17,853 nt of DNA from Armatimonadota bacterium. GTDB lineage: Bacteria > Armatimonadota > UBA10988. The notes under the pieces were generated by a model. The model ran no database searches, was not told where the DNA came from, and saw nothing but the letters and a program-made list of their open reading frames with translations. This document shows, one piece after another, positions 121-17,853 of the stretch; position 1 is the stretch's first letter, and every line of letters starts with the position of its first letter. Where the stretch lies: assembly GCA_016235455.1 (NCBI GenBank), contig JACRKZ010000115.1, forward strand, positions 1-17,853, written 5' to 3'. The translations under genes were made by a program, and so were the position numbers.

Positions 121-3100
121 TCATCGTCCCGCCTCCTCAAACCGCAACGTCCCCCACAGCCGCGGGGTGAGCATGATCTCGCCGGGCACATCGTTGACCA
201 GCATCGTGGCCTGGTTGGACCAGTAGTTGCGCAGCCGGTTGATGGTGCCCTCCGTATCGCCATAGATGACGCCGAAGTCGGCCCGCACGCTGCGGCCCAC
301 GGGCACCGCGCCCAGCGCCGACCAGGGGATTGCCGCCTCCAGCCGGTAGCCGTCACCGGCCTTGAGCACGACCACTCGCGCCTCGCCGAGGCGCTTGACG
401 CTGTCCACCTTCTCCGCGCGCCAGGGGCTTTGGAAGACGACGCTCTCGGCCGCGACGGGCTTGGCCAGGCGATGCCGGTAGAGCACCGTCACCGTCTCCT
501 CGCCCATGGGCGCGATGAGCAACCTCAGGTCGCCAGGCACGGGGCCGGTGCGGTCGGCGGGCGCCTTGTCGTCCAGCCCGAGTTGCAGGTCGACGCTGTC
601 GCCGGTCTTGAACAGTGTCTGCCAGTCTTTGCCGCGGTTGACCCACGGTGAGTCGTCGCGCACCTGATAGTGCAGATAGAGGTTCTGGTCGTCGTAGCCG
701 GCGCGGACCGTGACCGGCACCTGGCCCGACTTGTCCCACTTGACCGCGCCCTCGGCCGGCCAGTCGCCGGCGTCACCGTCGATCTTGGGCGGCGCGGCCA
801 GGCGCGGGGCGAGCGCCACCTTGGGCGGCGCCGCGTCGGCCACGCGGCGCGCCAGATTGCGCTCGGCCGCGGCGGCCTGCGCGGCGGTGACGGTCAGTGT
901 GCCGCCATCGCGCTTGACCTGGCCCAGGCCGTCCACGCGGAACACGCGGTACTCGATGCCGCCGGCCTGGAGGTAGTAGGTGCCATCCTTCTCCGAGCGG
1001 CCAAAGCAGCCGCCGAAGCACTCGCCGCCGATCATGTAGGCGTCGCGCGGGCCACCGACACGCACATCGCTGAACATCTCGTCCAGGTACAGCCCATCGG
1101 TGGTCATGGCGAACAGCCGCCCGTGGTTGCCGTTCATGACCATCACGTCGCCCTGCGCATCGAGCGGGGCCACGCCGGTGAAGAACAGCACGCCCTGCAG
1201 TTCGCCGGTGCGCGGCAGGGGGGCGTTGTGGCTGCCGTGGACGTTGGTCCAGCGGTTCGGATAGCGCCATTTCAGCGTGCCGTCGGGCGCATAGGCGCGC
1301 ATCACCGGGTCGCTGTTGAGGATGGTCGTGCCGAAGCGGTCCACCGTACTCTCGACCATGTTGCCACCCGTGGGCAGGTCGATGGCCGGCGCGGCGGCGA
1401 TGGCTTCGTTCAGGTCGGGGTACTTCGGCGCGCCACCGGGCCAGAAGCCCGACGGCTTGAGCGTCACCAGCCGGCACCCGCCGCCGACCGTGGCGGCCAC
1501 GCGCAGCGTCAGGTCGGCCAGATCATGGCCCCAGCCCGAGCCGGCCAGGTTGGCCGCGCTCGTGGCGAACTGGATCTCGTCGGCTTGCATCTCGCCGTCG
1601 CCGCTGCGGTCCACCCAGATCATGCCGAAGCCATGCTGCGGCCGGCCCTCGGTGCCGACCACGTACTTCTCGTTGGGGTAAGCCTTGGCAAACGCCTCGA
1701 CGAACGCGGCCGGCGGGTTCCAGTCGCGGCTGTAGCTGAACTGATGGGCCGAGGTCAGGCAGGCCAGCGGCTTGAGTGAGCCGTCGGCGCGCAACTCCTC
1801 GATGTACGTCGCCTTGCCATACGCGATGACGAAGGTACGGCCGTCTTGGCGCCAGTAGCGATAGTGCATGCCCGGCTGCCCACCGGTCAGCGCGGCCGGC
1901 ACCGCCTTCTTGGCCGCGAAGTCCAGCCGAAACAGGCTGCCCTGGCCGAACCAGCGGGTCGCGTCGGCGGGGTCGAAGCCGGCGCCGGGCGCGCCATAGG
2001 CGGTCGGGCCGTACAACTCGGCCTTGACCGCGCCGCTGGCCGGATCGTAGGCCGCCAGCCGCTTGGGGGTCCAGCGACCCGGCTCGGTGACCCACAGCCA
2101 GCCGTTAGGGCCGAGCACCAGCCCCGCGGGATGGATCATGCGCTGTGGGTCGTAGGCGCCGGTGTAGGGTCCGCCAGGCTTGCCCACGGTGCCGGCCGGC
2201 TGGCCCGTGGCGGACAGAAAGCGCACGGTCTGGCTGGCGCCGTCGCTGAGCAGGATGCGGCCGGCGGGGTCGACGGCCAGGCCGGTGATGCGCAGGTCGC
2301 CGGCGGGCAGGATGGGCGTCGCCTTGCCGCTGGCGGGGTCGACCCTGACCAGCGCGCCGGCCGACACGGCCAGCAACGCGTCGCCCGCGGCGGCCAGCGC
2401 GCCGGGCTCACGCAGCGGCAGCGCGCCGGTCTTGAGGCCCGTGGCGGGATCGACCACCAGCACCGTGTCGGTCGAGCCGTCGGCCACGTAGAGCCGGCCG
2501 CCGAGCAGCGCCACGCCGCCGAGTACAGGTCGGTCGGCCCGCTTGTCGGGCGAGCCGGGGCCGGTCTCGTACTTGCTCAGGATGCTCAGCCTCACGCCCT
2601 TGTCGTAGTCGGCGGTCTGGCCCGTGGCCAGGTCGAAGCGCACCAGGCCGATCTGGTAGGTCGCCGACCAGCCGGGCTTGGAGCGGTCCACACGCTGGCC
2701 CCAGTACATGCCGTCGTAGACCGCGTAGACGTACCTGGCGTCGACCGCGACGCCCAGGCGCTCCAGGCCGTGGCCGTTGGGCGCGTTGAAGCCCATGCGC
2801 AGCCGGCCGTCGGGCTCCAGCGCGACGATCTCGTAGCCGCCTTCGCTCACGCCGGTGCCGAACACGACCACCTGGCCGTTGGTGGCGGCGGATTCGAGCG
2901 TGCCGTGGTTGGAGCCGGGGCCGTCGCAGAAGCTGAACAGGTGCGTCGGGCGCAGGCCGGGATGGTAGGCGGAGCGCCAGCGGTAGGCGCCGGGCGGCAC
3001 GGGCCGGCCGTCGTCGTCGAGGCCGTCCCAGGCCGCGCTCTGCGCGCCCTTGGCGGTGGTCTCGCCGCTGACCAGATTGCGCACGCGGCGACCCGCGGAG

Positions 3101-3669
3101 TCTTCGATGACCAGCGTGGCCTTGCCGTCAAAGGGCTGCGTGAAGCGCACGGCCAGCGCTTGGCGACGGTCGGCGGCCAGCCGCTCATACTCGACCAGGC
3201 TCAACGGCGCCCACAGCGCAGGCTCGTCGGGCAGCGGCGCATGGGGCGCGCGGCCGTCGAGGCAGCGGAACCGTTCGCGCTGCACCTCGGCCCCGCCGGT
3301 GCCGAGCCAACGCACGGCCAGCGCCAGGCGCAATTGGCCCCAGTCAGCAGGCGCGCCGACCAACTGCCCCGCGGGCACGGCGAAGGCGAACCGTCGGCCT
3401 TCGGCGGTGGCGGCACTGCGCGCGCCATCGGAGGTCAGCCGCACGGGCTTGGCGGCGGCCAGGGCCAGATCGACCGCGCAGTCACGCAGCGTGGACGACC
3501 AGGCGCCGACCTCGACGAACACCTGCAGCCGGTCGTCGGTGCGGTTGAGCGCGAAGGCCACGCGCGGCGAGCTAGGGCCCGAGACCGCCACGAAGTCGGC
3601 GGGATCAAGCTGCGCCCAGGCCGAAGTGGTCAGTAGCGCCGCGAGCAGGAAGAGCGTTTTACGTGCCAT
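121..3669 (-). CDS. Secreted multidomain protein: FlgD-type Ig domain, beta-propeller (NHL/SGL-like) region and C-terminal CBM9/DOMON-like sugar-binding domain (1182 aa)
   Basis: Start reassigned to the ATG at 3669, which gives the signal peptide MARKTLFLLAALLTTSAWA-Q. FlgD_Ig-like signature IEDSAGRRVRNL...WDGLDDDGRPVPPGAY. Propeller-type repeats (GRLYVADG, GLAVDPAGRILLSDG). Possible Ca-binding loop DRSGDGEMQADE. CBM9-like PKIDGDAGDW...YDDQNLYLHYQVRD...GDSVDLQL...YRLEAAIPWSAL. Confidence 0.85.
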   Translation of the reverse strand: MARKTLFLLAALLTTSAWAQLDPADFVAVSGPSSPRVAFALNRTDDRLQVFVEVGAWSSTLRDCAVDLALAAAKPVRLTSDGARSAATAEGRRFAFAVPAGQLVGAPADWGQLRLALAVRWLGTGGAEVQRERFRCLDGRAPHAPLPDEPALWAPLSLVEYERLAADRRQALAVRFTQPFDGKATLVIEDSAGRRVRNLVSGETTAKGAQSAAWDGLDDDGRPVPPGAYRWRSAYHPGLRPTHLFSFCDGPGSNHGTLESAATNGQVVVFGTGVSEGGYEIVALEPDGRLRMGFNAPNGHGLERLGVAVDARYVYAVYDGMYWGQRVDRSKPGWSATYQIGLVRFDLATGQTADYDKGVRLSILSKYETGPGSPDKRADRPVLGGVALLGGRLYVADGSTDTVLVVDPATGLKTGALPLREPGALAAAGDALLAVSAGALVRVDPASGKATPILPAGDLRITGLAVDPAGRILLSDGASQTVRFLSATGQPAGTVGKPGGPYTGAYDPQRMIHPAGLVLGPNGWLWVTEPGRWTPKRLAAYDPASGAVKAELYGPTAYGAPGAGFDPADATRWFGQGSLFRLDFAAKKAVPAALTGGQPGMHYRYWRQDGRTFVIAYGKATYIEELRADGSLKPLACLTSAHQFSYSRDWNPPAAFVEAFAKAYPNEKYVVGTEGRPQHGFGMIWVDRSGDGEMQADEIQFATSAANLAGSGWGHDLADLTLRVAATVGGGCRLVTLKPSGFWPGGAPKYPDLNEAIAAAPAIDLPTGGNMVESTVDRFGTTILNSDPVMRAYAPDGTLKWRYPNRWTNVHGSHNAPLPRTGELQGVLFFTGVAPLDAQGDVMVMNGNHGRLFAMTTDGLYLDEMFSDVRVGGPRDAYMIGGECFGGCFGRSEKDGTYYLQAGGIEYRVFRVDGLGQVKRDGGTLTVTAAQAAAAERNLARRVADAAPPKVALAPRLAAPPKIDGDAGDWPAEGAVKWDKSGQVPVTVRAGYDDQNLYLHYQVRDDSPWVNRGKDWQTLFKTGDSVDLQLGLDDKAPADRTGPVPGDLRLLIAPMGEETVTVLYRHRLAKPVAAESVVFQSPWRAEKVDSVKRLGEARVVVLKAGDGYRLEAAIPWSALGAVPVGRSVRADFGVIYGDTEGTINRLRNYWSNQATMLVNDVPGEIMLTPRLWGTLRFEEAGR

Positions 3670-3712
3670 GCCAGTTGGCTTCGACACGCTCGGCGCCGGG
3701 CCTTCCTGTTGA

Positions 3713-3778
3713 TCGACCACAGAGGACACAGAGAGCACAGAGAGCCCGGATCGGACGGGACTCTGTGTCCTCTGTGGT
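3713..3778. repeat. Left end: three 9-mer NNCACAGAG units, 18-nt spacer, two inverted units (hairpin-forming)
   Basis: ACCACAGAG GACACAGAG AGCACAGAG (3716-3742), spacer 3743-3760, CTCTGTGTC CTCTGTGGT (3761-3778). 3716-3733 and 3761-3778 are perfect 18-bp reverse complements. Confidence 0.95.
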
Positions 3779-3787
3779 TGGCAATGG

Positions 3788-4180
3788 CTAGAGGACCCGG
3801 CGCTTGATGCCCTCGCGGAGGCGCACCACATTGAAGTTCATGAGCAGACCCAGCCTCAAGCCCGACAGCTTGAGGTAGGAGAGCAACTGCGCTTCATGCA
3901 CCGGCCGGAGTGCCTCGACCGCCTTCAGTTCGATGATCACCTTGTCCTCGACAACCAAGTCCAGCCGGTACCCACAATCGAGCGCCACGCCCTTGTACAC
4001 CACCGGTAGCGACACTTCCTTGGCGACTTGCAGGCCATGCATAGCCAGCTCGTGGAAGAGACATTCCTTGTAAGCCGACTCGAGAAGCCCGGGTCCAAGA
4101 GCGCTATGCACCTCAAACGCACAGCCGATGATCTCGCCACTCAACTCCGGCCATAGATCATCCACGACACCCATCCCCAC
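3788..4180 (-). CDS. GxxExxY protein (PD-(D/E)XK nuclease-like fold, about 130 aa)
   Basis: Signature GPGLLESAY (GxxExxY), catalytic-type RLDLVVEDKVIIELK (D...ExK), QLLSY (QxxxY) and GLLMNF. The start could be GTG at 4180 or ATG at 4174. Confidence 0.95.
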   Translation of the reverse strand: MGMGVVDDLWPELSGEIIGCAFEVHSALGPGLLESAYKECLFHELAMHGLQVAKEVSLPVVYKGVALDCGYRLDLVVEDKVIIELKAVEALRPVHEAQLLSYLKLSGLRLGLLMNFNVVRLREGIKRRVL

Positions 4181-4189
4181 ACAGGAATT

Positions 4190-4217
4190 ATCATACCACA
4201 GAGGACACAGAGATCAA
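4190..4217 (-). promoter_or_regulatory. Predicted sigma70-type promoter of the GxxExxY gene
   Basis: Minus strand: TTGATC (4217-4212), 16 nt, then TATGAT (4195-4190) preceded by an extended -10 TGn. It lies about 10 nt upstream of the GTG at 4180. Confidence 0.6.
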
Positions 4218-4260
4218 TATGATGTAGGCCCTCTGTGCTCTCTGTGTCCTCTGTGGTCGA
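4195..4260. repeat. Right end: two 9-mer units, 18-nt spacer, three inverted units (hairpin-forming)
   Basis: ACCACAGAG GACACAGAG (4195-4212), spacer 4213-4230, CTCTGTGCT CTCTGTGTC CTCTGTGGT (4231-4257) then CGA. This is the mirror image of the left end. Confidence 0.95.
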
Positions 4261-4268
4261 AACACTAC

Positions 4269-5420
4269 TCAGGCGGGCACCAGCCTTTCTAGCTGGCCGA
4301 ACATGATGCGTTCCTTGCGGCTAGGGTCGCTGTCGCCGTGGGTCACGGTGAGCCAGACGACACCGTCGTAGGCATGGAACGTGGGGTACTGGAACGACTT
4401 GGTCGTTTCGAAGCGGTACTTGCGCTCCCAGTGGCGGGCATCGCGCGAGACATCGATGTTGAACACGCTGCGGCCGACACCGCCGACCATCGCCGAATCC
4501 TGCCAGCCCAGGTGATAGACGCCGTCGAAGCACTCGAGGGTCGGCTTGGAACTGCTGCCCGACGGCACCGACGCCCAGGGCTCGCCAGCCGTCCAGTTCC
4601 GGCCGTCGGCGCTGGTGGTGAACCGGTAGTTGCGGTCCCCACCCTCCTGGCGACAGACAGCCAGCCAGGTGCCGTCGGGCAGCCGGTTCACCGCCGATTC
4701 GGTCAGATGCAGGTTGGCGGGCTGGTTGTAGTGGCCGACCAACTCGAACGTGTCGTGCGCGTCGTTGAGCCGCGCCAGCGCGTTCTGCGCGCCGGGGTAG
4801 TTGTTCAGCGCCACGTAGGTCTGCCCCTCGAACTGCCGGAACGAGTCGAAGATGTACAGCCCGAAGTCCACCGCCGGCCAGCCGAACCCGCCGGGCGATG
4901 CCACCGCGTCGGCGTGGAACCAGCACGGCTCCATGGGCCTGATGCCGGCGGCGGTCCTGAGCCGGACCGGATGGATGGTGTCGTCGAAGGCCATGCGCTG
5001 GGTGTCGAAGTCGCGGTACCAGGTCTGGGACTGGCGCACGCCGGGCTGCTCGCTGGCGAAGTAGCAGCGCAGCCGGCGGTCGTCGAGCGCGAGGACGCGC
5101 GGCACGAAGCAGGCGCCCGGCGGCAGCGTGGCGTTGTCGAAGAGCTGCTCGCCATGGGCGAACGGCAGCGTCAACTCGACGCGCAGCGTGGCCAGGTCGA
5201 CGACGGTCAGCACGCAGTAGACAAACGGCCAGGCCGCGGCCTCGCCGGCGCGCTGGTCGTTGGCCTCGGCGACGATGTAGGCTCGGCCGCCGGCCACGCA
5301 GAACTCGGCATCATGGGCGCCGCGCACCTGCGGCGCGGACACATTGATCAGGCCGGCGAGCACGCGGTCGGCCGCGGCGCGCGGGTCCCAGTCGGGTGGC
5401 AGGATTCTGCTATCGGCCAT
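4269..5420 (-). CDS. BNR/Asp-box beta-propeller protein, sialidase-like (383 aa)
   Basis: Asp-box-like motifs TTSADGRNW and VSRDARHW, plus LTESAVNRLPDGTWLAVCR and FQYPT...VWLTVT typical of sialidase-type propellers. Strong RBS GAAGGAGG. Overlaps the upstream gene by 11 nt. No signal peptide is evident. Confidence 0.75.
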   Translation of the reverse strand: MADSRILPPDWDPRAAADRVLAGLINVSAPQVRGAHDAEFCVAGGRAYIVAEANDQRAGEAAAWPFVYCVLTVVDLATLRVELTLPFAHGEQLFDNATLPPGACFVPRVLALDDRRLRCYFASEQPGVRQSQTWYRDFDTQRMAFDDTIHPVRLRTAAGIRPMEPCWFHADAVASPGGFGWPAVDFGLYIFDSFRQFEGQTYVALNNYPGAQNALARLNDAHDTFELVGHYNQPANLHLTESAVNRLPDGTWLAVCRQEGGDRNYRFTTSADGRNWTAGEPWASVPSGSSSKPTLECFDGVYHLGWQDSAMVGGVGRSVFNIDVSRDARHWERKYRFETTKSFQYPTFHAYDGVVWLTVTHGDSDPSRKERIMFGQLERLVPA

Positions 5421-8073
5421 TGCCGGCCCCCTCCTTCGGCGCCTCGGTGGGCGCGTTGATCAGCAACTCGTCGACGAACAGCCAGGCCGGCGCACCGGGC
5501 GCGATGCCCTGCCAGGCGGGGATCCGGCCCAGATTGGTCGCCTCCACCCGCACGTAGCGCGCTGTGCCGGTCAACTCCGCCCTGAGCCACACCACCTCGG
5601 GCCTGGCACCGGCGGCCGGTTCCGGCACATCAAGGCTCGCGCCGGCCCGGAACACGCGGCCATCGTCGGACAGCAGGAACCGCACCCGCCGCGGCGGGAA
5701 GACGCCGGTACGTGGGTGCAGCAGGCACCGCAGCGCGGCCGAGCGCACCGGCGTGGGCTGGCCCAGGTCCACGGTCGCGGCCAAGTCGGCGCCCTGGTAG
5801 CCAAGCCACTCGGGGCTGGCTGGGTCGGGCTCACCGATCAACCCATCGGTCAGCGAGCCGGGCCCTGCGGCGCTGTATTGGGTTGCGGGCGGCGAATCCA
5901 GTGTCACACCGGCACCGCGTGCCGCGTGGGTCAGGCGGACCGGCTCAGCGAAACAGGCGTCGGGCATCATGGCCCGGCGCTCGGCGTCGAACTCGCGAGC
6001 GATGGTCGAGGCGGCCGTCAGATCCCACAGCGAGGTGCGCAACTGGCGTAGCGCCAGAACGCCGGTGATCCAGCCCTGGGTCCAGCCGGTCTCGGTTGAC
6101 CAAACCCCCCAGCCGATGTCGCCGTTGGAGCCCCAGTAGTCCCACTTGGCGTAGTCGAACCCGCGGAACCAGGCGCCATCGAGCTCTCGCCGGCGCTCGC
6201 TGCGCGCCTGGATGCGCACGAGGAAGTCCGCCAGCCGGTCCTCGGCGACTCGCGCGGCCGCATCACCGGTGGCGGCCACCGCCTCATGCAGGCCGAGCAG
6301 CGCGAAGTTCGTGGTGTAGAGCAGGTCGGTGCACGGGTCGCCCGTGGCATGGATGAGCGCACACTCGCCGGTGCCGTACTGCTCGTTGGCCGTGGCCGAG
6401 GCCGTCACCCGGCCGCGGATGGCGCCACTGGCATCCTGCGCGGCCAGCACGTAGGCCAGCGTCTGGTCGAGCCAACGTCGGTGCTCGGGCGTGTTGTCGA
6501 TACGCACCAGCCAGGCCAGCGGTAGTAGCATCCGCACCCGCTCGGCCTCGTGGCGGTTGGACTCGCAGTCCCACTGCTCAGGCGGCAGGTTCATCAGGTG
6601 GCCGATGCCGCGCACCGTGCGCTCGCGGAGCGGCTCGAAGCGGGCTTTGTCGTACAGCCACAAGTTGACCGCCCACAGGTAGGCCTGGTAATGCGGGCTG
6701 TGGCGCATGTTGCCCCAAGCGCCGCTGGACCGGTCCCAGAACCAGCGCCAGCCCCGGGCCACCAGTTCATGCTCCTCGATGCGGGCCTGCCGGTAGCCAC
6801 TGGGGCCGGTGGTGCGGAAGTTGGCCAGCATAGCGCGTAGCAGCCGCTGGTTCCAGCGCTCGTCGCCCAGCGCCGCGGCGGCGCCCAGTTGGCCCAGGAT
6901 GGCGCGGGCGTTGTCGTCGCCGTAGTAGACCACCGCGCCCATGGGCCGGTCGTCCCAGCCCAGAAGACCGTAGCTGGAGCTGTCGGCCGCGGCGCGTGGC
7001 CCCTGCGAGATGGTCGATCGCTCGTCGACGAAGTCGAGCAGGCGGCGCGCCACCGCGCTCGACGGCGCATGGCCATCGAGCCGGCCCCGCAGCGCCAGGG
7101 CCATGGCCGCTTCACTGCAGCAGTCGGCCCGCGCATACCAGCGCACGGGCTGCGTGCCGTCGGCCGCAATCGCGGAGCTAAAGGCTTCGAGGATGCCCTC
7201 GGAGCCGTCGCCCACGGGCTGGGCGGCGGGCGGCATCGGCTCCAACCGCTCGACGTCTTGCGGCAGCGCGCCCATCTTGGCGCGCCCCGCGGCGTTGAGC
7301 AGCAGGCGCGCCTGGGTGTACCAGTCCGTGCCGCGACGGATGGCGACCGCGGCGGCGTCCTCCGGCAGGGCAGCGTCGCGTGGGTAGGACGGCCGCACCA
7401 GCGGCTCAGAGCGCAGGTCAACCTGCCCGGCGCCCAGCCAGCCCAGGATCATCTGCCAGATGGGCGGCCAGGCGGCGACCGGCGCGTAGCGGCCGGTGAC
7501 GAAGCTGCTGAGCCGGGTCGTGGCGACCAGCAGGCCATGGTGCTCGAACAGCAGCGGATGGCTCTGGGCGGGCAGACCAAACACCGCTGTGTCGTAGCCG
7601 GCCACGCGCGCTAGCACGAGATGTGCGCTGACCACTTGGGCGGGCAGGTAATGGCAGTCCTGCACCATGGCGATACGCTGCCGCGGCAGGGCCGCGCCGA
7701 AGGCATCGCTGGCCACCACCGCGCGGCTCCACGACGCGTTGGCCGGCGGGCCGAGCGGCAGGTCCGGCAGCCAGGCCGGATACTCCACATACACCCGCAG
7801 CCGCCGGCTGGCCGCCAACCGGGCCAGCTCGGCATCGAACGGCGTGGTGCGGGCCGGATAGCCGTCGGCCAACAGCAGCACGCCGGCGCCCTCGGCCGCC
7901 TGAGCCAGCGCCTCGGCCGGCGTGTCGTAGCGCATTGCGCCCACACCCGACCGCTGCAAGGCCAGGTACAGGTCGTTGTCGGCGCGACAGGCCAGCACCA
8001 GGCTGGGCCCGGCCGCCGCCACCGAGCCGAGCCCTCCCAGACACAGACACGAGAGCCAGACGCGAGCCGTCAC
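5410..8073 (-). CDS. Secreted uncharacterised protein, probable (alpha/alpha)-barrel glycosidase-like core with C-terminal F5/8 type C (discoidin) domain (about 887 aa)
   Basis: Start reassigned to the GTG at 8073: RBS AGGTG and a hydrophobic signal (VWLSCLCLGGLGSVAAA). The core has helical repeats with YYGDDNARA and DLLYTTNFALLGLHEA. The C-terminus LTDG...WLGY...TVDLG...ARYVRVEATN...WLFVDELLIN is a typical F5/8 domain. Confidence 0.8.
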   Translation of the reverse strand: MTARVWLSCLCLGGLGSVAAAGPSLVLACRADNDLYLALQRSGVGAMRYDTPAEALAQAAEGAGVLLLADGYPARTTPFDAELARLAASRRLRVYVEYPAWLPDLPLGPPANASWSRAVVASDAFGAALPRQRIAMVQDCHYLPAQVVSAHLVLARVAGYDTAVFGLPAQSHPLLFEHHGLLVATTRLSSFVTGRYAPVAAWPPIWQMILGWLGAGQVDLRSEPLVRPSYPRDAALPEDAAAVAIRRGTDWYTQARLLLNAAGRAKMGALPQDVERLEPMPPAAQPVGDGSEGILEAFSSAIAADGTQPVRWYARADCCSEAAMALALRGRLDGHAPSSAVARRLLDFVDERSTISQGPRAAADSSSYGLLGWDDRPMGAVVYYGDDNARAILGQLGAAAALGDERWNQRLLRAMLANFRTTGPSGYRQARIEEHELVARGWRWFWDRSSGAWGNMRHSPHYQAYLWAVNLWLYDKARFEPLRERTVRGIGHLMNLPPEQWDCESNRHEAERVRMLLPLAWLVRIDNTPEHRRWLDQTLAYVLAAQDASGAIRGRVTASATANEQYGTGECALIHATGDPCTDLLYTTNFALLGLHEAVAATGDAAARVAEDRLADFLVRIQARSERRRELDGAWFRGFDYAKWDYWGSNGDIGWGVWSTETGWTQGWITGVLALRQLRTSLWDLTAASTIAREFDAERRAMMPDACFAEPVRLTHAARGAGVTLDSPPATQYSAAGPGSLTDGLIGEPDPASPEWLGYQGADLAATVDLGQPTPVRSAALRCLLHPRTGVFPPRRVRFLLSDDGRVFRAGASLDVPEPAAGARPEVVWLRAELTGTARYVRVEATNLGRIPAWQGIAPGAPAWLFVDELLINAPTEAPKEGAGNGR

Positions 8074-8202: not shown

Positions 8203-9105
8203 ATGCCGGATCAGCAGCCGCCACAGTCGAGCATCGTTCTCTACCGGACCGAGGACGGCCGCTCGCGCGTCGAATGCCGCTTCGAGGATGAGACGATCTG
8301 GCTGTCCCAGGCGCTCATCGCGGAGCTGTTCGATAAGGACGTGCGCACGATCAGTGAGCACCTGGCCAACATCTACGCGGAGCGCGAACTGGAGCCAGGG
8401 GCAACTATCCGGAGTTTCCGGATAGTTCGTCAGGAAGGTTTACGTCAGGTCGTTCGCGACATCGAGCACTATAGCCTGCCGGCCATTCTGGCCGTCGGCT
8501 ACCGGGTGCGGAGCCAGCGCGGCACGCAGTTCCGCCAGTGGGCCACCGAGCGCCTGAGCGAGTATCTGGTCAAGGGCTTTACCATCGACGACCAGCGCCT
8601 GGCCAACCCACCGAGCCCGACACGCGGCGCTTCTTCCAGACGGTGCAGAACAAGCTGCATTTCGCGGTGACCGGCAAGACCGCCCCCGAGCTCATCGCCG
8701 AACGGGCCGACGCGACCAAGCCCAACATGGGCCTGACCACCTGGAAGGGCCAGGTCGTGCGACGCGGCGACGTCACGGTGGCCAAGAACTACCTGACCGA
8801 ACCCGAGATCGACGAGCTCAACCGCATCGTGGTCATGTTCCTGGACTACGCTGAAGACCAGGCCCGCCGGCGCCGGCAGGTGTTGCTGAGCGACTGGCAG
8901 ACCCGGCTCGACGACTGGCTCCGCTTCAACGAGCGCGACGTGCTGCCTGACGCCGGCCGGGTCTCGCGGGCCGCCGACGACGAGCTGGCCGAGCAAGCCT
9001 ACGAGCAGTTCAGCTCGCGGCGGCGCGAGCAGACGGAACTGGACGCGCTACGCGAGCTGGAGGACCAGGCCCGGCGACTGCCGCGCAGCCAGGCGAGGCC
9101 AGGTC
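8203..9105 (+). pseudogene. rhuM: Virulence RhuM-family protein, disrupted (frameshift with apparent internal deletion; no stop at the expected end)
   Basis: Frame 1 from ATG 8203 has ETIWLSQALIAELF...ILAVGYRVRSQRGTQFRQWATERLSEYLVKGFTIDDQRLANPP and stops at 8670. Another frame resumes at about 8607 with PTEPDTRRFFQTVQNKLHFAVTGKTAPELI...NMGLTTWKG...AKNYLTEPEIDELNRIVVMFLDYAE and reads on to 9473, through the convergent gene. The end coordinate is approximate. Confidence 0.88.
8403..8427. repeat. Perfect 11-bp inverted repeat inside the rhuM coding sequence
   Basis: AACTATCCGGA-GTT-TCCGGATAGTT; the arms are exact reverse complements. Confidence 0.95.
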
Positions 9106-12100
9106 CTAGAGCCCCACCTCCGCCTCGCGCTCCACCCGCACCGTCTTCCCCGCCAGCCCCAACTCCGGCCCGCCGCAGCCGTGGTAGACCCGCGCGCGCC
9201 GGCCAGCGGCCAGCGGCTGGCCGTCCAGGCTGCGCGCCGTATACAGCGCCGGCGAGGCATAGCGCTTCCCACCGGCCTCCGTGGCGTGGACCGCGACGAA
9301 CGTCGGCGACCAGACCGCGAACCCATAGCGCGGCAAGGTCACGCGGCCGAGCACCGGGCCGGCGTCGAGGGTCACCGGCTGGGCGCCGTAGTTGGCCACG
9401 ACATTCAGGTCCGCGCCGAACCGCGTGCGCTCCACGCCGTCACGCACCGAGTGCGCTTCCAACGGCAGGTTGAAGGCCAGGCGGTTGACCCAGCTCAGCA
9501 CCTCGTAGGTGTTCTTGATGAAGCGGTCGGTGCGACCCAGGTCGCGGGTCCAGCCCTCACGCCGCGCGAACGGCGGCTGGCGGTTGGCAGCCGTGGTGGG
9601 AGTGAAGGTGACCGTGGCGCCCAGATGCAGCGTGCCCAGGTGGTAGCGGCCGCCGGCGCCCTCGCCCTGAGCGATGGCCTGGCGCTCGCCAGCCGCGTTG
9701 ATTACGCCGATGTACATGTCCACATCGCCGGTCAACCCCGCCGGCACGGTCACGCGACGTGGGCCCTCGACCGCCTCCACGCCCGCCGCCCAGCGACTGC
9801 TGCCCTCCAGGCGATGGTCGTCCTGGAAGACGATGCCCTCGGCCCGCGCGGCACCGGCCTGGGTGAAGTGGACGAACGCCGTGTAGTCGGCCGGCAGCGC
9901 CGCGGTGGGCCGCCAGCGGTAGGTGACGTCGATCGCACCATCAGCGCCCTTGACCTCGGCGCGGACGCTCACCGGCAGCGGCTCGGCGTCGGCCGCCTGC
10001 CAGTAGAGGTGGTTGCCGAACTCGTAGACCGGCATCTCGCCATAGACCAGGTAGTCCAGCAGATGCTTGTCATCGCCGGCGGCCAGGCGCGTGCTCTGGT
10101 GGGTGGTCGTGCTCACGCAGTCGTGGTAAGCGATCAGGAAGGCGGGCAGCACCTCGCCGGGCTCGGTGTCCCACTTCTGGCCGAGTTGGCCTTCGAGGTA
10201 GTCGGCCACCGGCACGGCCCATTCGCGGCCCTCCTCGGAGCCGAAGATGCCCATCTGCTCGCGCGCATAGCGGCACAGGCGCATCTTGTAGTCCAGGTCC
10301 ACCGCCCGACCCCAGCGGTCCGCCGGATCCTGTGAATCGACCAGCCCCCAGGCGAAGACCGTGTCGATGAACAGGGCCGTCGGGCCAAACAGCCGCTTGA
10401 CCTCGGGCAGGTTGCGCTGGGCAAGCTCCACCTGGCTCTGGGGCCGCACCTGCCAGGCCTGACCGCCGGCCCAGTTGCCGCCCATCAGCGACTTGCCGTT
10501 GGCATCCTTGCGCAGGTACTTGTGGTCGAAGCTCGGCGCGTCCTGATACATGTCCTGGTAGTTGTCGTGCAGACCGAACAAGTAGCCCTGGGCCTTGATC
10601 CGCGCGGCGGCCGCAGCCAGCCCGGCGTTGCCGCCACATTCGGGCGCCGCCGGCAGGATGTCGGGGTGCTGGTTGTCGTACCCGCGCTTGATCCAGCCGG
10701 CCAGCACCACCATGGCCTTGTCCAGTTGCAGGTCGCGCTTCCAGTGCTCGGCGGCCTGGGCCGTCTCGTCGAACGTGAATCCGACGTGGATCTGCTCCCG
10801 GCCCGATTTGTTCCACACCGAATCGGCCACGGTCCGCGTGAAGACGAACGGCTTGAAGTCGGCCGCGCCAGCCATGGCGTTGACCTCGGGGTGGGTTTTG
10901 GCCCGCTCCGCGCGGGTCACGCGCCAGCCGGCGCGCTCGGCCACGGCGCGGTAGGCGCGCGCGGCGGTGACATAATCGCCGCGACCCAGCGGGTGCAGCG
11001 TGATCTGGTGCGCATCGCTGGCCAACTCGATGCTGTGCTGGATGACGCGCGCACCCGCCAGCCGTTGGTCGTCGAGCCAGGCGCGGCGCACCTGCCAGCG
11101 CACGTCAACGCCATCCCAGGTGACCAGCAGGGCCGCGCCCTGCTGCTCGAGTGTCATCATCTGCATCGAGGAGTCGTCGTAGGTCAGCCGCGACTCCACC
11201 GTGGGCAGGCCGTCGGCGGCGGTCAGCCCCTTGCCCAGCCGGATCGGTAGCACCGTGCGGCCCGCGCCGGCGTCGGTCACGGGCAGGCCGCCGTCCAGCA
11301 GCCACACGCGGTCCACCTGCCACTCACTCTGGCCCACGGCTTCCCAGCGCAGGCGCAGGCCCGCGGGCGGCAGCGCGTCGGCCTCGGCATGGATGCGCAG
11401 GGCCAGACCGGTGGGCTTGCCGTCCAGCGCGGCCAGCGCCTGCTCGACCACCACTTGCCCGGCCGGCGACGCGACCGCGCGCAGGTCGTTGAGCACCAAT
11501 GGCAGCCGCTCGGCGCCGCGCCGCAGCACCACGCGTCCGAGCCGCGCCTGCACCGGGTTGGAGGTCCAGGTCACGCCGGCGGCGCGGTCGGTCAGCGTCC
11601 ACCGGCCCGAGCCGGGCTCCAGCGCGAAGTCGAACCCCCCGCCGGCCAGCTTGAGCGGCCCGCGCAGCGTGGTCGCGGCAGCCTGCCGGCGGGCCACTTC
11701 GGCGGCCCGCAAGGCATCGGGCCCCTTGGGCGTCGCGCCGCGCCCGGCCTTCGGGTCGACCGTGACGCTGCCCGCGGCGACGTCCAGCAGACGTGGCCCG
11801 CCGGCGGGGTCGAACACGCCCACATGCACGTTGTAGCGGCCCGCGGCGGCGTCGGCCGGCACGGTGACCAGCAGCGGCCCATCCATGATCGTGTCGCCGG
11901 GCATCCAGTAGCCCACCGGCTCAAACGGGTCGTGATCCGCCTGCCAGGCGATCTTGGCGCAGCCCTTGTCGGGATCCTCGAAATGCACGAACACGCGGCA
12001 GTTCTGGGCCGTGACCGCCGTGCCGGTGTTGCGGAACCAGCAGGTGAGCGACACGGTGGCACCGGGCGCCAGCGTCGCCGGCAGCACTTCGGCTCGCTGC

Positions 12101-12186
12101 AACTCGGGGCGGAAGCCGGCGGGCTGAGCGCCGACGAGGGCGGCGGCCAGCAGCACTGGCGCCAGGGCACGGAATAGGTGGACCAT
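9106..12186 (-). CDS. Secreted glycoside hydrolase-like protein (DUF5696 / GH129-GH101-like TIM barrel) with two Ig-like accessory domains (1026 aa)
   Basis: Signal peptide MVHLFRALAPVLLAAALVGA and RBS GAGGA. Motifs LAGWIKRGYDNQHPDILPAAPECGG, GYLFGLHDNYQDMYQDAPSFD, LFIDTV and GSEEGREWAVP...EG resemble GH129-type enzymes. Confidence 0.8.
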   Translation of the reverse strand: MVHLFRALAPVLLAAALVGAQPAGFRPELQRAEVLPATLAPGATVSLTCWFRNTGTAVTAQNCRVFVHFEDPDKGCAKIAWQADHDPFEPVGYWMPGDTIMDGPLLVTVPADAAAGRYNVHVGVFDPAGGPRLLDVAAGSVTVDPKAGRGATPKGPDALRAAEVARRQAAATTLRGPLKLAGGGFDFALEPGSGRWTLTDRAAGVTWTSNPVQARLGRVVLRRGAERLPLVLNDLRAVASPAGQVVVEQALAALDGKPTGLALRIHAEADALPPAGLRLRWEAVGQSEWQVDRVWLLDGGLPVTDAGAGRTVLPIRLGKGLTAADGLPTVESRLTYDDSSMQMMTLEQQGAALLVTWDGVDVRWQVRRAWLDDQRLAGARVIQHSIELASDAHQITLHPLGRGDYVTAARAYRAVAERAGWRVTRAERAKTHPEVNAMAGAADFKPFVFTRTVADSVWNKSGREQIHVGFTFDETAQAAEHWKRDLQLDKAMVVLAGWIKRGYDNQHPDILPAAPECGGNAGLAAAAARIKAQGYLFGLHDNYQDMYQDAPSFDHKYLRKDANGKSLMGGNWAGGQAWQVRPQSQVELAQRNLPEVKRLFGPTALFIDTVFAWGLVDSQDPADRWGRAVDLDYKMRLCRYAREQMGIFGSEEGREWAVPVADYLEGQLGQKWDTEPGEVLPAFLIAYHDCVSTTTHQSTRLAAGDDKHLLDYLVYGEMPVYEFGNHLYWQAADAEPLPVSVRAEVKGADGAIDVTYRWRPTAALPADYTAFVHFTQAGAARAEGIVFQDDHRLEGSSRWAAGVEAVEGPRRVTVPAGLTGDVDMYIGVINAAGERQAIAQGEGAGGRYHLGTLHLGATVTFTPTTAANRQPPFARREGWTRDLGRTDRFIKNTYEVLSWVNRLAFNLPLEAHSVRDGVERTRFGADLNVVANYGAQPVTLDAGPVLGRVTLPRYGFAVWSPTFVAVHATEAGGKRYASPALYTARSLDGQPLAAGRRARVYHGCGGPELGLAGKTVRVEREAEVGL

Positions 12187-14933: not shown

Positions 14934-16022
14934 TCACGCGCCGAACACCCGCCGCCGCAACGCGCGGCAGTAGTACTCGTAGTTGGCCCACGACACGTCG
15001 TCGGGCACCAGATGGTCCAGGTCGGGAATGTAGCCGCCGCCCTCGACCGCCGGCCAGACGCGCGCCAGCTCCGCCTCGATGGCGTCCGGCCCCACAGCCA
15101 GCGCGCGCTTGTCGATGCCGCCCATCATGCCCATGGCCGGGTAGCGGGCGCGGATGTCGTTGATATCGCAGCCGGCGGCCACCTCGGCGGGGAACAGGTA
15201 GTTCACGCCAGCCTCGAGCATCGGCGCCATGATCGCCTCGGGCTGGCCATCGGTATCCACCGACAGCAGCGGGATGCCGTGCTGCTCGGCAAAGGCCTTG
15301 ATGCGCCGGTAACCGGGGCCCATGAACTCGCGCCAGTGTGCCGGCGAGATGAGCGGCCCCTGCTTGCCGCACATGTCCTCCCAGATGTGGATGATATCCA
15401 CCCGCACGCCGGCCTCGACCACCGCGCCGAACACCGCCAGGTAGATGTCGGTCATGGTCTCCATGATGTCGTGGATCAGCTCAGGGTCGTCGTAGAAGGT
15501 GACCAGGCACTCCTCATCGCCCAGCAGCCAGCGCACCGCGCCAAACAGACCGTCGGGGTAGCCGCCGAGTTGGATGGGCAGGTCGCGCTTCATCCAGTCG
15601 GCGCAGTGCTCACGCCACGGGCCGGCCAGCCGCTCGGGATGGTGTGGATCCATGCGCTCGGCCTTGTAGGCCGCCCAGTCGTCCCGGCCGGCAATGGGGA
15701 ACCGAACGAAGGTGGGCATCGACTCGCCGTGCTTGGTGTCGCGCCGGGTGATGCCCCAGCCGTCGATCCAGGTGCGCGTGTCGTCGTCCTCGGCGATGAC
15801 CTGGTGCGGCACCCGGGGGCATGGGCCGCACAGCACCGGCACGCCCACGGGCCCGCTGTCGGGCGCGGCGAACGAGCGCGCGTCGGTGACGCTGTCGGGC
15901 TTGCCCTCGCGCTGCCAGCGCTGCCAGGCGGTGCCCCACGGCCCCCAGTGCAGGCAGTAGGGCACGCGGTCGACGTCCTGGCCCAGCAGGCAGCGGATGT
16001 AGCGTTCGCGGTCGGACAGCAT
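14934..16022 (-). CDS. Uroporphyrinogen decarboxylase (URO-D)/MtaA-CmuA-like family protein (362 aa)
   Basis: Start is the ATG at 16022 with RBS GGAG. MLSDRERY...DRVP, FYDDPELIHDIM, IWEDMCGKQGPLISP, VDTDG, MGGIDKR and GGYIPDLDHLVPDDVSWANY fit the family. It is not a canonical HemE, so no symbol is given. Confidence 0.9.
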   Translation of the reverse strand: MLSDRERYIRCLLGQDVDRVPYCLHWGPWGTAWQRWQREGKPDSVTDARSFAAPDSGPVGVPVLCGPCPRVPHQVIAEDDDTRTWIDGWGITRRDTKHGESMPTFVRFPIAGRDDWAAYKAERMDPHHPERLAGPWREHCADWMKRDLPIQLGGYPDGLFGAVRWLLGDEECLVTFYDDPELIHDIMETMTDIYLAVFGAVVEAGVRVDIIHIWEDMCGKQGPLISPAHWREFMGPGYRRIKAFAEQHGIPLLSVDTDGQPEAIMAPMLEAGVNYLFPAEVAAGCDINDIRARYPAMGMMGGIDKRALAVGPDAIEAELARVWPAVEGGGYIPDLDHLVPDDVSWANYEYYCRALRRRVFGA

Positions 16023-16130
16023 GGCGGGCGGCTCCCGACGCCAACCGTAGCGCATGGCGGGGGTCCGAGGCAAGCGACCTGGAGGACCATCGGCCCGCGG
16101 CGTCGAACCCCACCTCCGAACGAGGAAACC

Positions 16131-17663
16131 ATGCAACTGAACCTGGCCGAATATCGCGACAAAGTCCTGGGCTGCTGGCTCGGCAAGAACATCGGTGGCA
16201 CGCTGGGCGCGCCGTTCGAGTGCCGGCGCGGTGTGTTCGACGTGGACTTCTACACCCAGGAGACCCACGGCGAGCCACTGCCCAACGACGACCTGGACCT
16301 GCAACTGGTCTGGCTCAACGCCGCCGAGAAGCACGGCCGCGGCGTCACCGGGTCGATCCTCGGCGAGTACTGGCTGATGTACATCACGCCCAACTGGGGC
16401 GAGTATGGCGCGGGCAAGAACAACCTCGTCGCCGGCCTCATCCCGCCGCTGTCGGGCTATGTCAACAATGTCTACCGCGATAGCTGCGGCGCGTTCATCC
16501 TCTCGGAGATCTGGGCCTGCCTGGCGCCCGGCCATCCCGAAGTAGCCGTGCGCTATGCGTTCGAAGACTCCACGGTCAACCACAGCAACGAAGGTGTCTA
16601 CGCCGAGACCTTCTGCGCTGCCGTGCAGAGCGCGGCCTTCGCCGAGACCGACGCGCGCGCGCTCATCGCCATCGGCCTGTCGTTCATTCCCACCGACTGC
16701 GGTGTGGCCAAGGCGGTCCACACCGTGCTCGACGCCTACGACGGCGGCCGGACCTGGCAGGAGGCGCGCAAGCTCGTGCTCCAGGCGGTGCCGGCCACCT
16801 TCGGCCTGTTGGGCACGCCGCGCGAGCAGGTGCCGGCCGACGAGCCCGAAGGCGCCATGGGCTACGACGCGCCGAGCAACATCGGCATCATCCTCATCGG
16901 CTGGCTGTACGGCGAAGGCGACTTCGGCCGCAGCATCTGCCTGGCCACCAACTGCGGCGAGGACGCGGACTGCACCGCCGGCACGCTCGGCGCCATCCTG
17001 GGCATCATCGGCGGCGCCTCGGCCCTGCCCGACAAATGGCTGGCGCCCATCGGCCGCAACATCAAGACCATCTGCCTCAACCGCGGCGACCAGGGCATGA
17101 AGTGGCCCAACACCGTGGACGAGATGACCGAACGCGTGCTGCACCTGACTCCGCGGTTCCTGGGCAGCGACTGGGTCGATGTGGTCAACACCACCGCCGG
17201 CTACACCATCCGCTGCCACGAGGGCGACGGGCTGGTCAACCGCCGCCGCCGCCGCAACGCGTTTGTCGAGACCGACTACCTGGACCATCTGGCGCGCCAG
17301 CCGTTCACCGTCAGCCACGACTTCACGTTGTTCACCACGCGTTTGGAGTATGGCGCCGAGCCGCTGATCCGCGCCGGCCAGCCGCTCACACTGCGCGTGA
17401 CCATCGAGAACCAGTTCTTCCGCCAGCAGTGGCTCAATCTGCGCTGGCACCTGCCCGCGGGCTTCCGCGTCAGCCCCGGCCCAGCGGTCAGCGCGCCGCT
17501 GGAGCAGTACCACTGCAATGTGGGCAGCACGACGCTCGAGTTCGAGATCGTGGTCGACGAGCTGACCGAGCCGCGCTATGACCTGGTGCTGCAGATCTCG
17601 TCGGTCGGGCATCATACGCAAGGGCTGATCCCGGTGGTGCTGTTGACGGCTGGGCGGAGCTGA
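16131..17663 (+). CDS. ADP-ribosylglycohydrolase (DraG/ARH) family protein with C-terminal extension (510 aa)
   Basis: RBS GAGGA before ATG 16131. Motifs YRDKVLGCWLGKNIGGTLGAPFE, PNDDLD and the metal-binding GEDADCTAGTLGAILG. The last roughly 130 aa are beta-rich. Confidence 0.9.
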   Translation: MQLNLAEYRDKVLGCWLGKNIGGTLGAPFECRRGVFDVDFYTQETHGEPLPNDDLDLQLVWLNAAEKHGRGVTGSILGEYWLMYITPNWGEYGAGKNNLVAGLIPPLSGYVNNVYRDSCGAFILSEIWACLAPGHPEVAVRYAFEDSTVNHSNEGVYAETFCAAVQSAAFAETDARALIAIGLSFIPTDCGVAKAVHTVLDAYDGGRTWQEARKLVLQAVPATFGLLGTPREQVPADEPEGAMGYDAPSNIGIILIGWLYGEGDFGRSICLATNCGEDADCTAGTLGAILGIIGGASALPDKWLAPIGRNIKTICLNRGDQGMKWPNTVDEMTERVLHLTPRFLGSDWVDVVNTTAGYTIRCHEGDGLVNRRRRRNAFVETDYLDHLARQPFTVSHDFTLFTTRLEYGAEPLIRAGQPLTLRVTIENQFFRQQWLNLRWHLPAGFRVSPGPAVSAPLEQYHCNVGSTTLEFEIVVDELTEPRYDLVLQISSVGHHTQGLIPVVLLTAGRS

Positions 17664-17676
17664 GCCGGAACAGGAT

Positions 17677-17853
17677 ATGAGTCTGATGCGCTGGCTGACA
17701 CGACTGCTGGGCTTCCTGCTCTTCGCGCTCGCGCCAGCCAGCGCCGCCACACCGGACGAACAAGCTGCCGCGGCCCTGGCCGGCCGCGTGCTGGGTCCGG
17801 CCGCGGCGGGTTTCGTGTTCGAGCAGCGGCCGGCCGACGGCGGCCGCGATACC
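17677..17853 (+). CDS. 5' fragment of a secreted protein, probably alpha-N-acetylglucosaminidase (GH89) N-terminal domain; runs off the window
   Basis: Translated by hand (not in the ORF track): MSLMRWLTRLLGFLLFALAPASAATPDEQAAAALAGRVLGPAAAGFVFEQRPADGGRDT. A signal peptide is followed by an A..L..RVL....F..E......RD pattern like NAGLU N-termini. Alternative start is the ATG at 17686. Confidence 0.55.
   Translation, partial: MSLMRWLTRLLGFLLFALAPASAATPDEQAAAALAGRVLGPAAAGFVFEQRPADGGRDT

Follow-up and report, generated by a model that had tools for sequence, protein, structure and literature searches.

What is the role of a small gene of the GxxExxY family that lies, by itself, between two stretches of DNA that mirror each other? 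The question is raised by positions 3713–4260 of contig JACRKZ010000115.1 (assembly GCA_016235455.1) of an Armatimonadota bacterium; the whole contig, 17,853 nt in length, is referred to below as the window (contig C50 of the source genome, G000, which comprises 6.5 Mb in 185 contigs and is 93% complete). An earlier note on this DNA had suggested that the gene product itself recognises or cuts its flanking repeats and thereby spreads the cassette, by analogy with repetitive extragenic palindromic (REP) sequences and their REP-associated tyrosine transposases (RAYTs). We give an even chance to the reading that the cassette is a selfish, REP/RAYT-like element, which also resembles the intervening sequences (IVSs) of 23S ribosomal RNA (rRNA), and that its nuclease acts on its own hairpins, with gene-less hairpins elsewhere in the genome being non-autonomous copies. 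On the same reading, the cassette would be a resident member of a widespread family of GxxExxY cassettes bounded by hairpins, with arms made of tandem 8–10-nt units.

The cassette (548 bp) consists of one minus-strand open reading frame (ORF) between two 66-nt hairpins built from nonamers with the core CACAGAG. In the sense of the gene, the upstream hairpin (4195–4260, minus strand) comprises three nonamer units, an 18-nt spacer, and two inverted units, and the downstream hairpin (3713–3778, minus strand) comprises two units, an 18-nt spacer, and three inverted units. At the left end, units start at 3718, 3727, and 3736, the spacer spans 3743–3760, and inverted units start at 3761 and 3770; at the right end, units start at 4197 and 4206, the spacer spans 4213–4230, and inverted units start at 4231, 4240, and 4249. 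The mirror symmetry described in the earlier note was borne out by exact repeat checks: the two ends can pair with each other at 56 of their 66 positions (85%), the outer arm (3713–3742) forms a perfect 30-bp inverted repeat with its partner (4231–4260), and the inner arm of two inverted units (3761–3778) is complementary to the inner arm of two units at 4195–4212. Each end can also fold on itself, as had been supposed, with 18 of 18 stem positions paired on the left and 21 of 22 on the right. The lower GC content of the interior is real (0.58 for the cassette against 0.70 for the window), as is that at third codon positions (GC3), which is 0.78 in the ORF against 0.92 in each neighbouring gene; the composition of the cassette is foreign to the genome.

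The gene (3788–4180, minus strand) encodes 130 residues when read from a GTG codon or 128 residues when read from the ATG at 4174. Its product matches both PF13366 (PDDEXK_3; E 1.7e-44, 151.4 bits against a cut-off of 22) and TIGR04256 (GxxExxY; E 2e-46, 157.1 bits against a cut-off of 35), and carries the motif G31-L-L-E34-S-A-Y37 together with D74, E84, K86, and Q98. Across an alignment of 25 GxxExxY proteins from the source genome and its relatives, G29, G31, E34, Y37, Y62, D74, K86, Q98, Y102, N115, and F116 are invariant, and E84 is nearly so (at least 90% conserved). Judged by its sequence, the window protein carries the complete PD-(D/E)XK residue set and is predicted to be an intact nuclease. 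A confident AlphaFold (AF2) model (predicted local distance difference test score 93.9) points the same way, its top structural neighbours being PD-(D/E)XK nucleases: Cas4 SSO0001 (Z 7.8), BpuSI (Z 7.6), restriction enzymes, and Hjc (Z 6.2). With Z no higher than 7.8 and Foldseek E no lower than 2.5e-3, the model assigns the fold and identifies no close relative. The earlier note's placement of the protein in a PD-(D/E)XK-like fold agrees with the family matches, with the conserved D74, E84, and K86, and with the neighbours of the model.

A sequence search retrieved no relative of the window protein from the PDB, PHROGs gave no match, and PADLOC returned a single weak match to Cas4 (E 0.0039) and no defence family beyond that. 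PF13366/TIGR04256 is a large family, with at least 597 confirmed relatives in public genomes (among 600 matched stretches). The survey Steczkiewicz 2012 (PMC3424549) gives the function of PF13366 as 'Unknown'.

A profile search of the source genome's contigs recovered exactly two GxxExxY genes, that of the window and a second on contig C84. The latter has arms of its own: three CACAGATTA units on one side and three TAATCTGTG-type units on the other (in order TAATCTGTG, TAATCTGCG, TAATCTGTG), with the gene sitting in the loop. The same design recurs in related genomes, of which two sets were used, a larger one of 201 genomes from the phylum and a smaller one of 41 relatives. In 16 of the latter 41, 30 GxxExxY loci were found, mostly with two to four tandem 7–10-nt units upstream and their reverse complement downstream, and with a unit sequence that varies from locus to locus. 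Public genomes were covered by scoring the best 80 of the at least 597 loci (77 scorable, three having short flanks), the upstream flank being compared with the reverse complement of the downstream flank and 291 displaced windows serving as controls. Matching arms scored above the 95th percentile of the controls at 64 of the 77 loci, with a median score of 18 against 8, and hence the enrichment of repeats beside GxxExxY homologues that the earlier proposal called for is present. Arms in the public loci begin with (A)ACC followed by C[AG]C[AG][AG]AG units at a period of 8–10 nt, and cyanobacterial homologues have arms of the CGCAAAG type. The loci that were scored or placed on the protein tree span 17 phyla, including two archaeal records.

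Of 99 loci, only that of the window has its gene flanked on both sides by complete hairpins, at the threshold used. The window form is an unusual variant and may have arisen from a canonical cassette, each arm having acquired a partner, or may be a gene that sits between two ordinary hairpins. Another variant was seen in the CGCCGAT(G/A) clade (loci L009, L020, and L029; genomes G025 and G036), in which the upstream units include the start codon and encode the N terminus M-[ND]-A-D-[AE]-R-R, so that the arms overlap the coding sequence.

One alternative is coincidence, in which unrelated intergenic stem-loops flank, by chance and with no functional link, a gene for an ordinary housekeeping or defence nuclease. 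The weak Cas4 similarity would suit it, as would an ordinary gene on contig C67 of the source genome that also lies between two hairpins (described below). This explanation is strongly disfavoured, and we hold it to be very improbable: matching arms at 64 of 77 homologue loci are well above the controls, the C84 paralogue has its own cognate arms, the type of unit clusters on the protein tree, and neither PHROGs nor the defence families offer any match beyond that to Cas4.

Clustering by unit type was assessed on a maximum-likelihood tree of 102 proteins, made by a quick method from few columns and with many unresolved forks. Unit type changes 24 times on this tree, compared with a mean of 37.1 and a minimum of 32 when labels were shuffled, and none of 300 shuffles was as low; repeat sequence thus co-varies with the protein tree, as the earlier note had proposed to ask. 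One well-supported group, the GAAG clade (Shimodaira–Hasegawa-like approximate likelihood-ratio test 99), comprises 13 rows, 11 of which are labelled GAAG and come from six phyla. In nine of these 11 loci, the core of the upstream array is identical, CACGAAG, although the search pattern permitted four variants. The ORFs of the clade share 68% nucleotide identity overall and 41% at third codon positions; the core is thus fixed while synonymous sites are saturated, which argues for selection on the sequence itself and not on pairing alone. In addition, one pair of orthologous cassettes has every unit on both arms switched from CACAGAG to CACGGAG and, since all the units changed together, the arms evolve in concert.

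Hairpins of the same units also occur in the source genome with no gene between their arms. A strict pattern (at least two units followed by at least two inverted units within 100 nt) retrieved 47 hairpins, compared with three for the inverse order, and these represent three families: aac-CACAGAG...gtt, gatc-CACAGAT(TA/GA)...gatc, and catc-CGCAGAT...gatg. The gene-less CACAGAG hairpins that the earlier note had proposed counting are among them and share arms exactly with the cassette. The 25-nt unit array of the window's outer arm has four copies in the genome (two in the window, one at C22:48096, and one at C142:13275), and both arms of a hairpin with no gene, at C10:35575, consist of the 16-nt unit array found in the window's inner arm. 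Likewise, the arm most often found in the genome (six copies) is one of those of the C84 gene and is made of CACAGATTA units. From this exact sharing it follows that each of the two genes is associated with a unit core of its own (...GAG and ...GAT, respectively) and that each core has a gene-less population.

According to a GC3 heuristic, 22 of the 47 hairpins lie between convergent genes, 19 between tandem genes, and two between divergent genes, with four unclear. The hairpins therefore behave like REP elements and are mostly found at the 3′ ends of genes. Direct repeats immediately outside the palindrome measure 0 nt in 24 hairpins, 1 nt in 18, 2 nt in four, and 6 nt in one; there is no target-site duplication at the hairpins, nor was any seen at the ends of the window cassette. 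The loops of the gene-less hairpins contain no obvious gene remnant, by inspection only.

The source genome also encodes three Y1 transposases (PF01797, RAYT-like), at C159:62884-63192, C129:4295-4603, and C111:4188-4478, and the repeats flanking these genes differ from those of the cassette. Given that the copies on C159 and C129 each lie between palindromic repeats that are their own and differ from those of the cassette, a classical REP/RAYT system appears to coexist with the GxxExxY one. The RAYT/REP analogy drawn in the earlier note fits, with the cassette's repeats belonging to none of the genome's own Y1-transposase genes.

Across the 201 genomes, hairpins and the nuclease gene tend to occur together. 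The hairpin pattern occurs in 32 genomes and the gene in 74, with the gene being present in 27 of the 32 hairpin-bearing genomes compared with 47 of the 169 that lack hairpins. Expressed the other way, hairpins were found in 27 of the 74 genomes that have the gene and in five of the 127 that do not (odds ratio 14; p 2e-9, which overstates the significance since related genomes are counted as if independent). The gene is present in every one of the 15 genomes with three or more hairpin matches, and a reversed-pattern control gave no match in any of the 201. A second gene family offers a further comparison, namely TIGR02436, the four-helix-bundle family of 23S rRNA IVS proteins, which is present in 24 of the 41 related genomes and has no member in the source genome. 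Both families occur together in 14 of the 41, GxxExxY alone in two, the bundle gene alone in 10, and neither in 15 (p 0.0035). Hairpins were seen in none of the 10 genomes with the bundle gene only, compared with six of the 14 with both genes; the hairpins follow GxxExxY and not the four-helix-bundle gene.

A number of observations nonetheless weigh against a nuclease that drives its own hairpins. Covariation of arms and protein is also expected from plain co-inheritance, in which arm and gene would cluster as well, and hence the tree result alone is no proof of recognition. The gene is missing from five of the 32 genomes with hairpins (one or two hairpin matches each), and 47 of the 74 genomes with the gene show no hairpin of the type searched for, so the gene is not sufficient. 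For the catc-CGCAGAT family, the source genome (93% complete as assembled) offers no gene that bears such arms. In genomes G140 and G149, CACGGATTA/TAATCTGTG hairpins are abundant, yet no gene was seen between arms of these sequences. On contig C67, two CACAGATTA hairpins (7588-7659 and 8476-8529) bracket the ordinary gene mentioned above. Finally, most of the 26 four-helix-bundle loci examined share the arm-gene-arm design around a gene that encodes no nuclease, with units such as TAGGGT, GGGGAGT, CAGTNAT, GAAGTCA, and GTGAAAA (loci L035-L064, relatives G003-G039).

Some details of these loci may be recorded separately. The bracketed C67 gene encodes a protein of about 270 residues that is cysteine-rich and, by eye, Fe-S-like. 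The hairpins of G140 and G149 (on contig C1 in both genomes; for example, G140:C1:2531695-2531759) have CACGGATTA as their 5′ arm and TAATCTGTG as their 3′ arm. Every unit of theirs pairs with a G.T wobble on one strand and with an A.C mismatch on the other, which hints that one particular single strand is functional.

Hairpin families with no cognate gene, the five genomes with hairpins and no gene, and the bracketed C67 gene would all be expected if the hairpins were an independent REP-like family—served by another factor or maintained for a host role such as transcript stabilisation—on which GxxExxY hitch-hikes in the manner of a homing endonuclease. The singular window locus, with hairpins on both sides, suits this explanation too, as its gene may have come to lie between ordinary hairpins. 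We nevertheless consider it unlikely. Hairpins are nearly confined to gene-bearing genomes, without exception where three or more matches occur; the arms accompany the gene across phyla, even into genomes that have no hairpin population; and the RAYT-like genes of the source genome, as noted, have other repeats.

The evidence for mobility of the cassette is mixed, and part of it adds to the points against a self-spreading element. Neither an empty site nor an excision product was found for the window cassette in the synteny of relatives or in public DNA contigs; the earlier note had envisaged a join of about 3712 to about 4261, and none was seen in a comparison with genomes G001-G005 or in the four public DNA runs compared. 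Eleven entries for public runs contain part of the stretch, and no RNA run is listed among those that contain it. Among G001-G005, only G002 has an orthologue of the 383-residue neighbour of the cassette, and synteny is broken there. Contigs from two other studies span the cassette junctions (run X7, 3650-3892; run X5, 4012-4287). Moreover, three pairs of orthologous sites were found in which the GxxExxY proteins are 62%–63% identical, compared with 61%–77% for the flanking genes. The syntenic, vertical inheritance that the earlier note had listed as speaking against its proposal was thus found at three other sites, between genera or species.

Joints running from 3742, 3743, or 3744 to 4230 or 4231 ('skips 485-488') were considered as excisions and rejected: their sides measure 27–28 nt, and they are probably gene-less hairpins of other organisms. 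Two X7 contigs joined at 3743->4230 have unrelated letters between the sides. Run X7 also contains a related strain with an extra CTCTGTGTC unit after 3760 in the left hairpin, which gives 3+3 units (one contig, depth 2.1).

Other observations count in favour of mobility. The same-genus genome G001 (80% complete) has neither GxxExxY gene nor hairpins, making the distribution patchy, and the protein tree intermixes phyla. A CGCAGAT hairpin at C10:31513 of the source genome lies in a 158-nt spacer between two conserved genes; the syntenic spacer in G001 measures 55 nt and does not have it, a short, partly arm-like sequence taking its place. The regions compared were G000:C10:31399-31700 and G001:C84:3960-4160, which settle presence or absence of the hairpin but not its precise limits. 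Patchy distribution, the mixing of phyla, foreign composition, hairpin presence or absence, and the strain with an extra unit are all on the side of movement.

For the reading in which the nuclease acts on its own hairpins, the architecture, the association, the covariation, and the constraint on the core were observed, and we infer nuclease activity, unit recognition, and any mobilisation step as follows. The nuclease would recognise the 7-nt unit cores (here CACAGAG), presented about one helical turn apart on folded arms, whether as a hairpin, a cruciform, or single-stranded DNA, and would nick or cut at these cores. A hydrolytic PD-(D/E)XK nuclease is incapable of strand transfer on its own, which is a further difficulty for the proposal; host replication and repair would be responsible for copying the short palindromes to new intergenic sites. 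Such a copying step would yield both scattered gene-less hairpins and uniform arms. The whole arm-gene-arm unit would move only rarely, being able to cross phyla as one piece and otherwise descending vertically.

Part of what is seen at these loci could instead arise at the level of RNA, in the manner of an IVS. The arms would pair in the polycistronic transcript, and the resulting stem would be processed (for instance, by RNase III) or would mask Shine–Dalgarno-like purine tracts in the units; consequently, the mRNA of a potentially harmful nuclease would be excised or throttled and the host operon insulated, with DNA mobility coming from something else. Folded as RNA, the 66-nt ends have energies between -36.3 and -39.1 kcal/mol (z between -6.0 and -6.4), with none of 200 shuffles as stable; in the sense of the gene, the upstream hairpin reaches -36.7 kcal/mol (z -6.44) and the downstream hairpin -38.6 kcal/mol (z -6.0). 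The whole cassette folds at -296.1 kcal/mol (z -9.96), with outer arm paired to outer arm and inner arm to inner arm around the ORF. Cassette units contain GAGG, GGAG, or AAGG tracts, and these units often abut the start codon. In addition, where the genes on both sides are co-directional, the cassette shares their orientation in 57 of 71 cases (a crude longest-ORF heuristic), which fits dependence on host transcription. The sharing of this design by TIGR02436 genes points in the same direction, as does the description of the Coxiella IVS as a selfish element with an ORF (PMC4990558).

Pairing alone, however, leaves unexplained an invariant 7-nt core that is maintained across six phyla at saturated synonymous divergence. 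Gene-less hairpins are found mostly between convergent genes (22 of 47), stem mismatches exhibit no strand bias of G.T (G.U) over A.C relative to transcription (12 against 12 in '>>' contexts and 12 against 10 in '<<' contexts, at low power), and no Rfam family matches. Between 3400 and 4600, Rfam gave neither rRNA nor any other family, only sub-threshold microRNA-like hairpin matches. As an explanation in its own right, the RNA-level role is considered unlikely; it is compatible with a nuclease acting on its own hairpins and does not exclude it. A promoter-like site (4190–4217, minus strand; TTGATC-16 nt-TATGAT with a TG extension) spans the upstream hairpin's loop and 3′ arm. The sigma-70-like site is a consensus match only, found once where 0.1 was expected from shuffles.

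Comparison with known systems places the cassette between two of them. Like REP sequences and REPINs with their RAYT (TnpA-REP, an HUH Y1 enzyme; 'REPtron'), it comprises a low-copy gene between inverted palindromic repeats, is accompanied by gene-less palindromes of the same sequence that are dispersed through the genome at gene 3′ ends with no target-site duplication, and has long vertical persistence. It differs in that its enzyme belongs to PD-(D/E)XK (PF13366) and not to the HUH Y1 transposases (PF01797), its repeats are arrays of tandem 8–10-nt units, the cassette crosses phyla, and the Y1-transposase genes of the same genome have different repeats. REP sequences have a conserved head with a GTAG-type tetranucleotide, and no such head is present in the hairpins of the source genome, whose arms begin with aac-CACAGAG, gatc-CACAGAT, or catc-CGCAGAT.

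The IVSs of 23S rRNA (Coxiella burnetii, Leptospira), which encode the S23p or four-helix-bundle protein, are similar in having a small ORF within complementary arms that form one long stem, in lying inside a transcription unit mostly in the sense orientation, and in their sporadic distribution. Their protein family, TIGR02436, has tandem-unit arms in relatives of the source genome. The cassette, by contrast, lies between protein-coding genes and not in rRNA, encodes a protein of a different family, and has a population of gene-less hairpins. It therefore works like REP/RAYT and is packaged like an ORF-bearing rRNA IVS, and it lacks a defining feature of each, namely the HUH transposase and the rRNA location, respectively.

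Other systems resemble the cassette in fewer respects. Short tandemly repeated repetitive (STRR) sequences of filamentous cyanobacteria are tandem 7-nt units in intergenic DNA, and the cassette arms are likewise tandem arrays of short intergenic units; we know of no link between STRR sequences and a nuclease gene. Integron cassettes have an ORF bounded by imperfect, single-strand-folding palindromes (attC) and co-oriented with its neighbours, as here, but the cassette arms are tandem-unit arrays, the hairpins are dispersed singly, and the hairpin ends (aac..gtt, gatc..gatc, catc..gatg) do not resemble the R′′/R′ boxes. The attC interpretation was weighed and set aside. No integrase matched among the eight window ORFs scanned; the genome was not searched for IntI, nor was an attC model run. 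Miniature inverted-repeat transposable elements (MITEs) and insertion sequences (ISs) share with the cassette terminal inverted repeats and short gene-less derivatives, and the Foldback elements of eukaryotes have arms of tandem short repeats. In 46 of the 47 hairpins, however, the candidate target-site repeat is only 0–2 nt, and there is no DDE transposase. An assignment to DDE-type ISs or MITEs was thus abandoned for want of a target-site duplication. No description of the system was found in the literature on GxxExxY/PDDEXK_3, PF13366/TIGR04256, IVSs, hairpin nucleases, and REPIN/RAYT; subscription journals and supplements were outside this coverage, and thus a description may exist.

The cassette occupies a short spacer between co-directional genes, beginning 8 nt past one stop codon and ending 43 nt before the next ATG (at 3669). 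Its upstream neighbour (4269–5420, minus strand, 383 residues) has no Pfam or NCBIfam match, and its downstream neighbour (121–3669, minus strand, 1182 residues) matches FlgD_ig and NHL repeats; both are host context outside the element. The earlier description of these as co-directional glycan genes is right as to strand, but 'glycan' is only loosely supported, with DUF5696/GH101-like and pectate-lyase-like proteins lying further off. Two large, secreted-enzyme-like proteins are encoded nearby on the minus strand: one of 938 residues (14934–17750) with a C-terminal URO-D/MtaA-like domain (PF01208, E 3.2e-13) and one of 1026 residues (9106–12186) with DUF5696 and weak similarity to GH101. A profile scan of the eight large ORFs of the window matched no transposase or recombinase family, in agreement with the earlier statement that no DDE, HUH, or tyrosine recombinase is present there.

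Tentatively, and with slightly less than even confidence, the findings may be extended to the family as a whole. GxxExxY proteins would then be the dedicated enzymes of an undescribed and very widespread class of prokaryotic selfish DNA (17 phyla, including archaea), one that uses PD-(D/E)XK in place of HUH chemistry, reads unit arrays on folded DNA, and drives both its own cassette and gene-less hairpins, with rRNA IVSs and four-helix-bundle cassettes as sister forms. Were this the case, the PF13366 family would gain a testable substrate in the 7-nt unit core, and an explanation would be at hand for intergenic repeats of a kind seen in many phyla. The system would be a second, mechanistically different long-lived intragenomic replicator of the REP/RAYT type and could explain the origin and spread of ORF-bearing rRNA IVSs. 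For genome annotation, such hairpins and cassettes should be treated as elements and not as regulatory sites of neighbouring genes.

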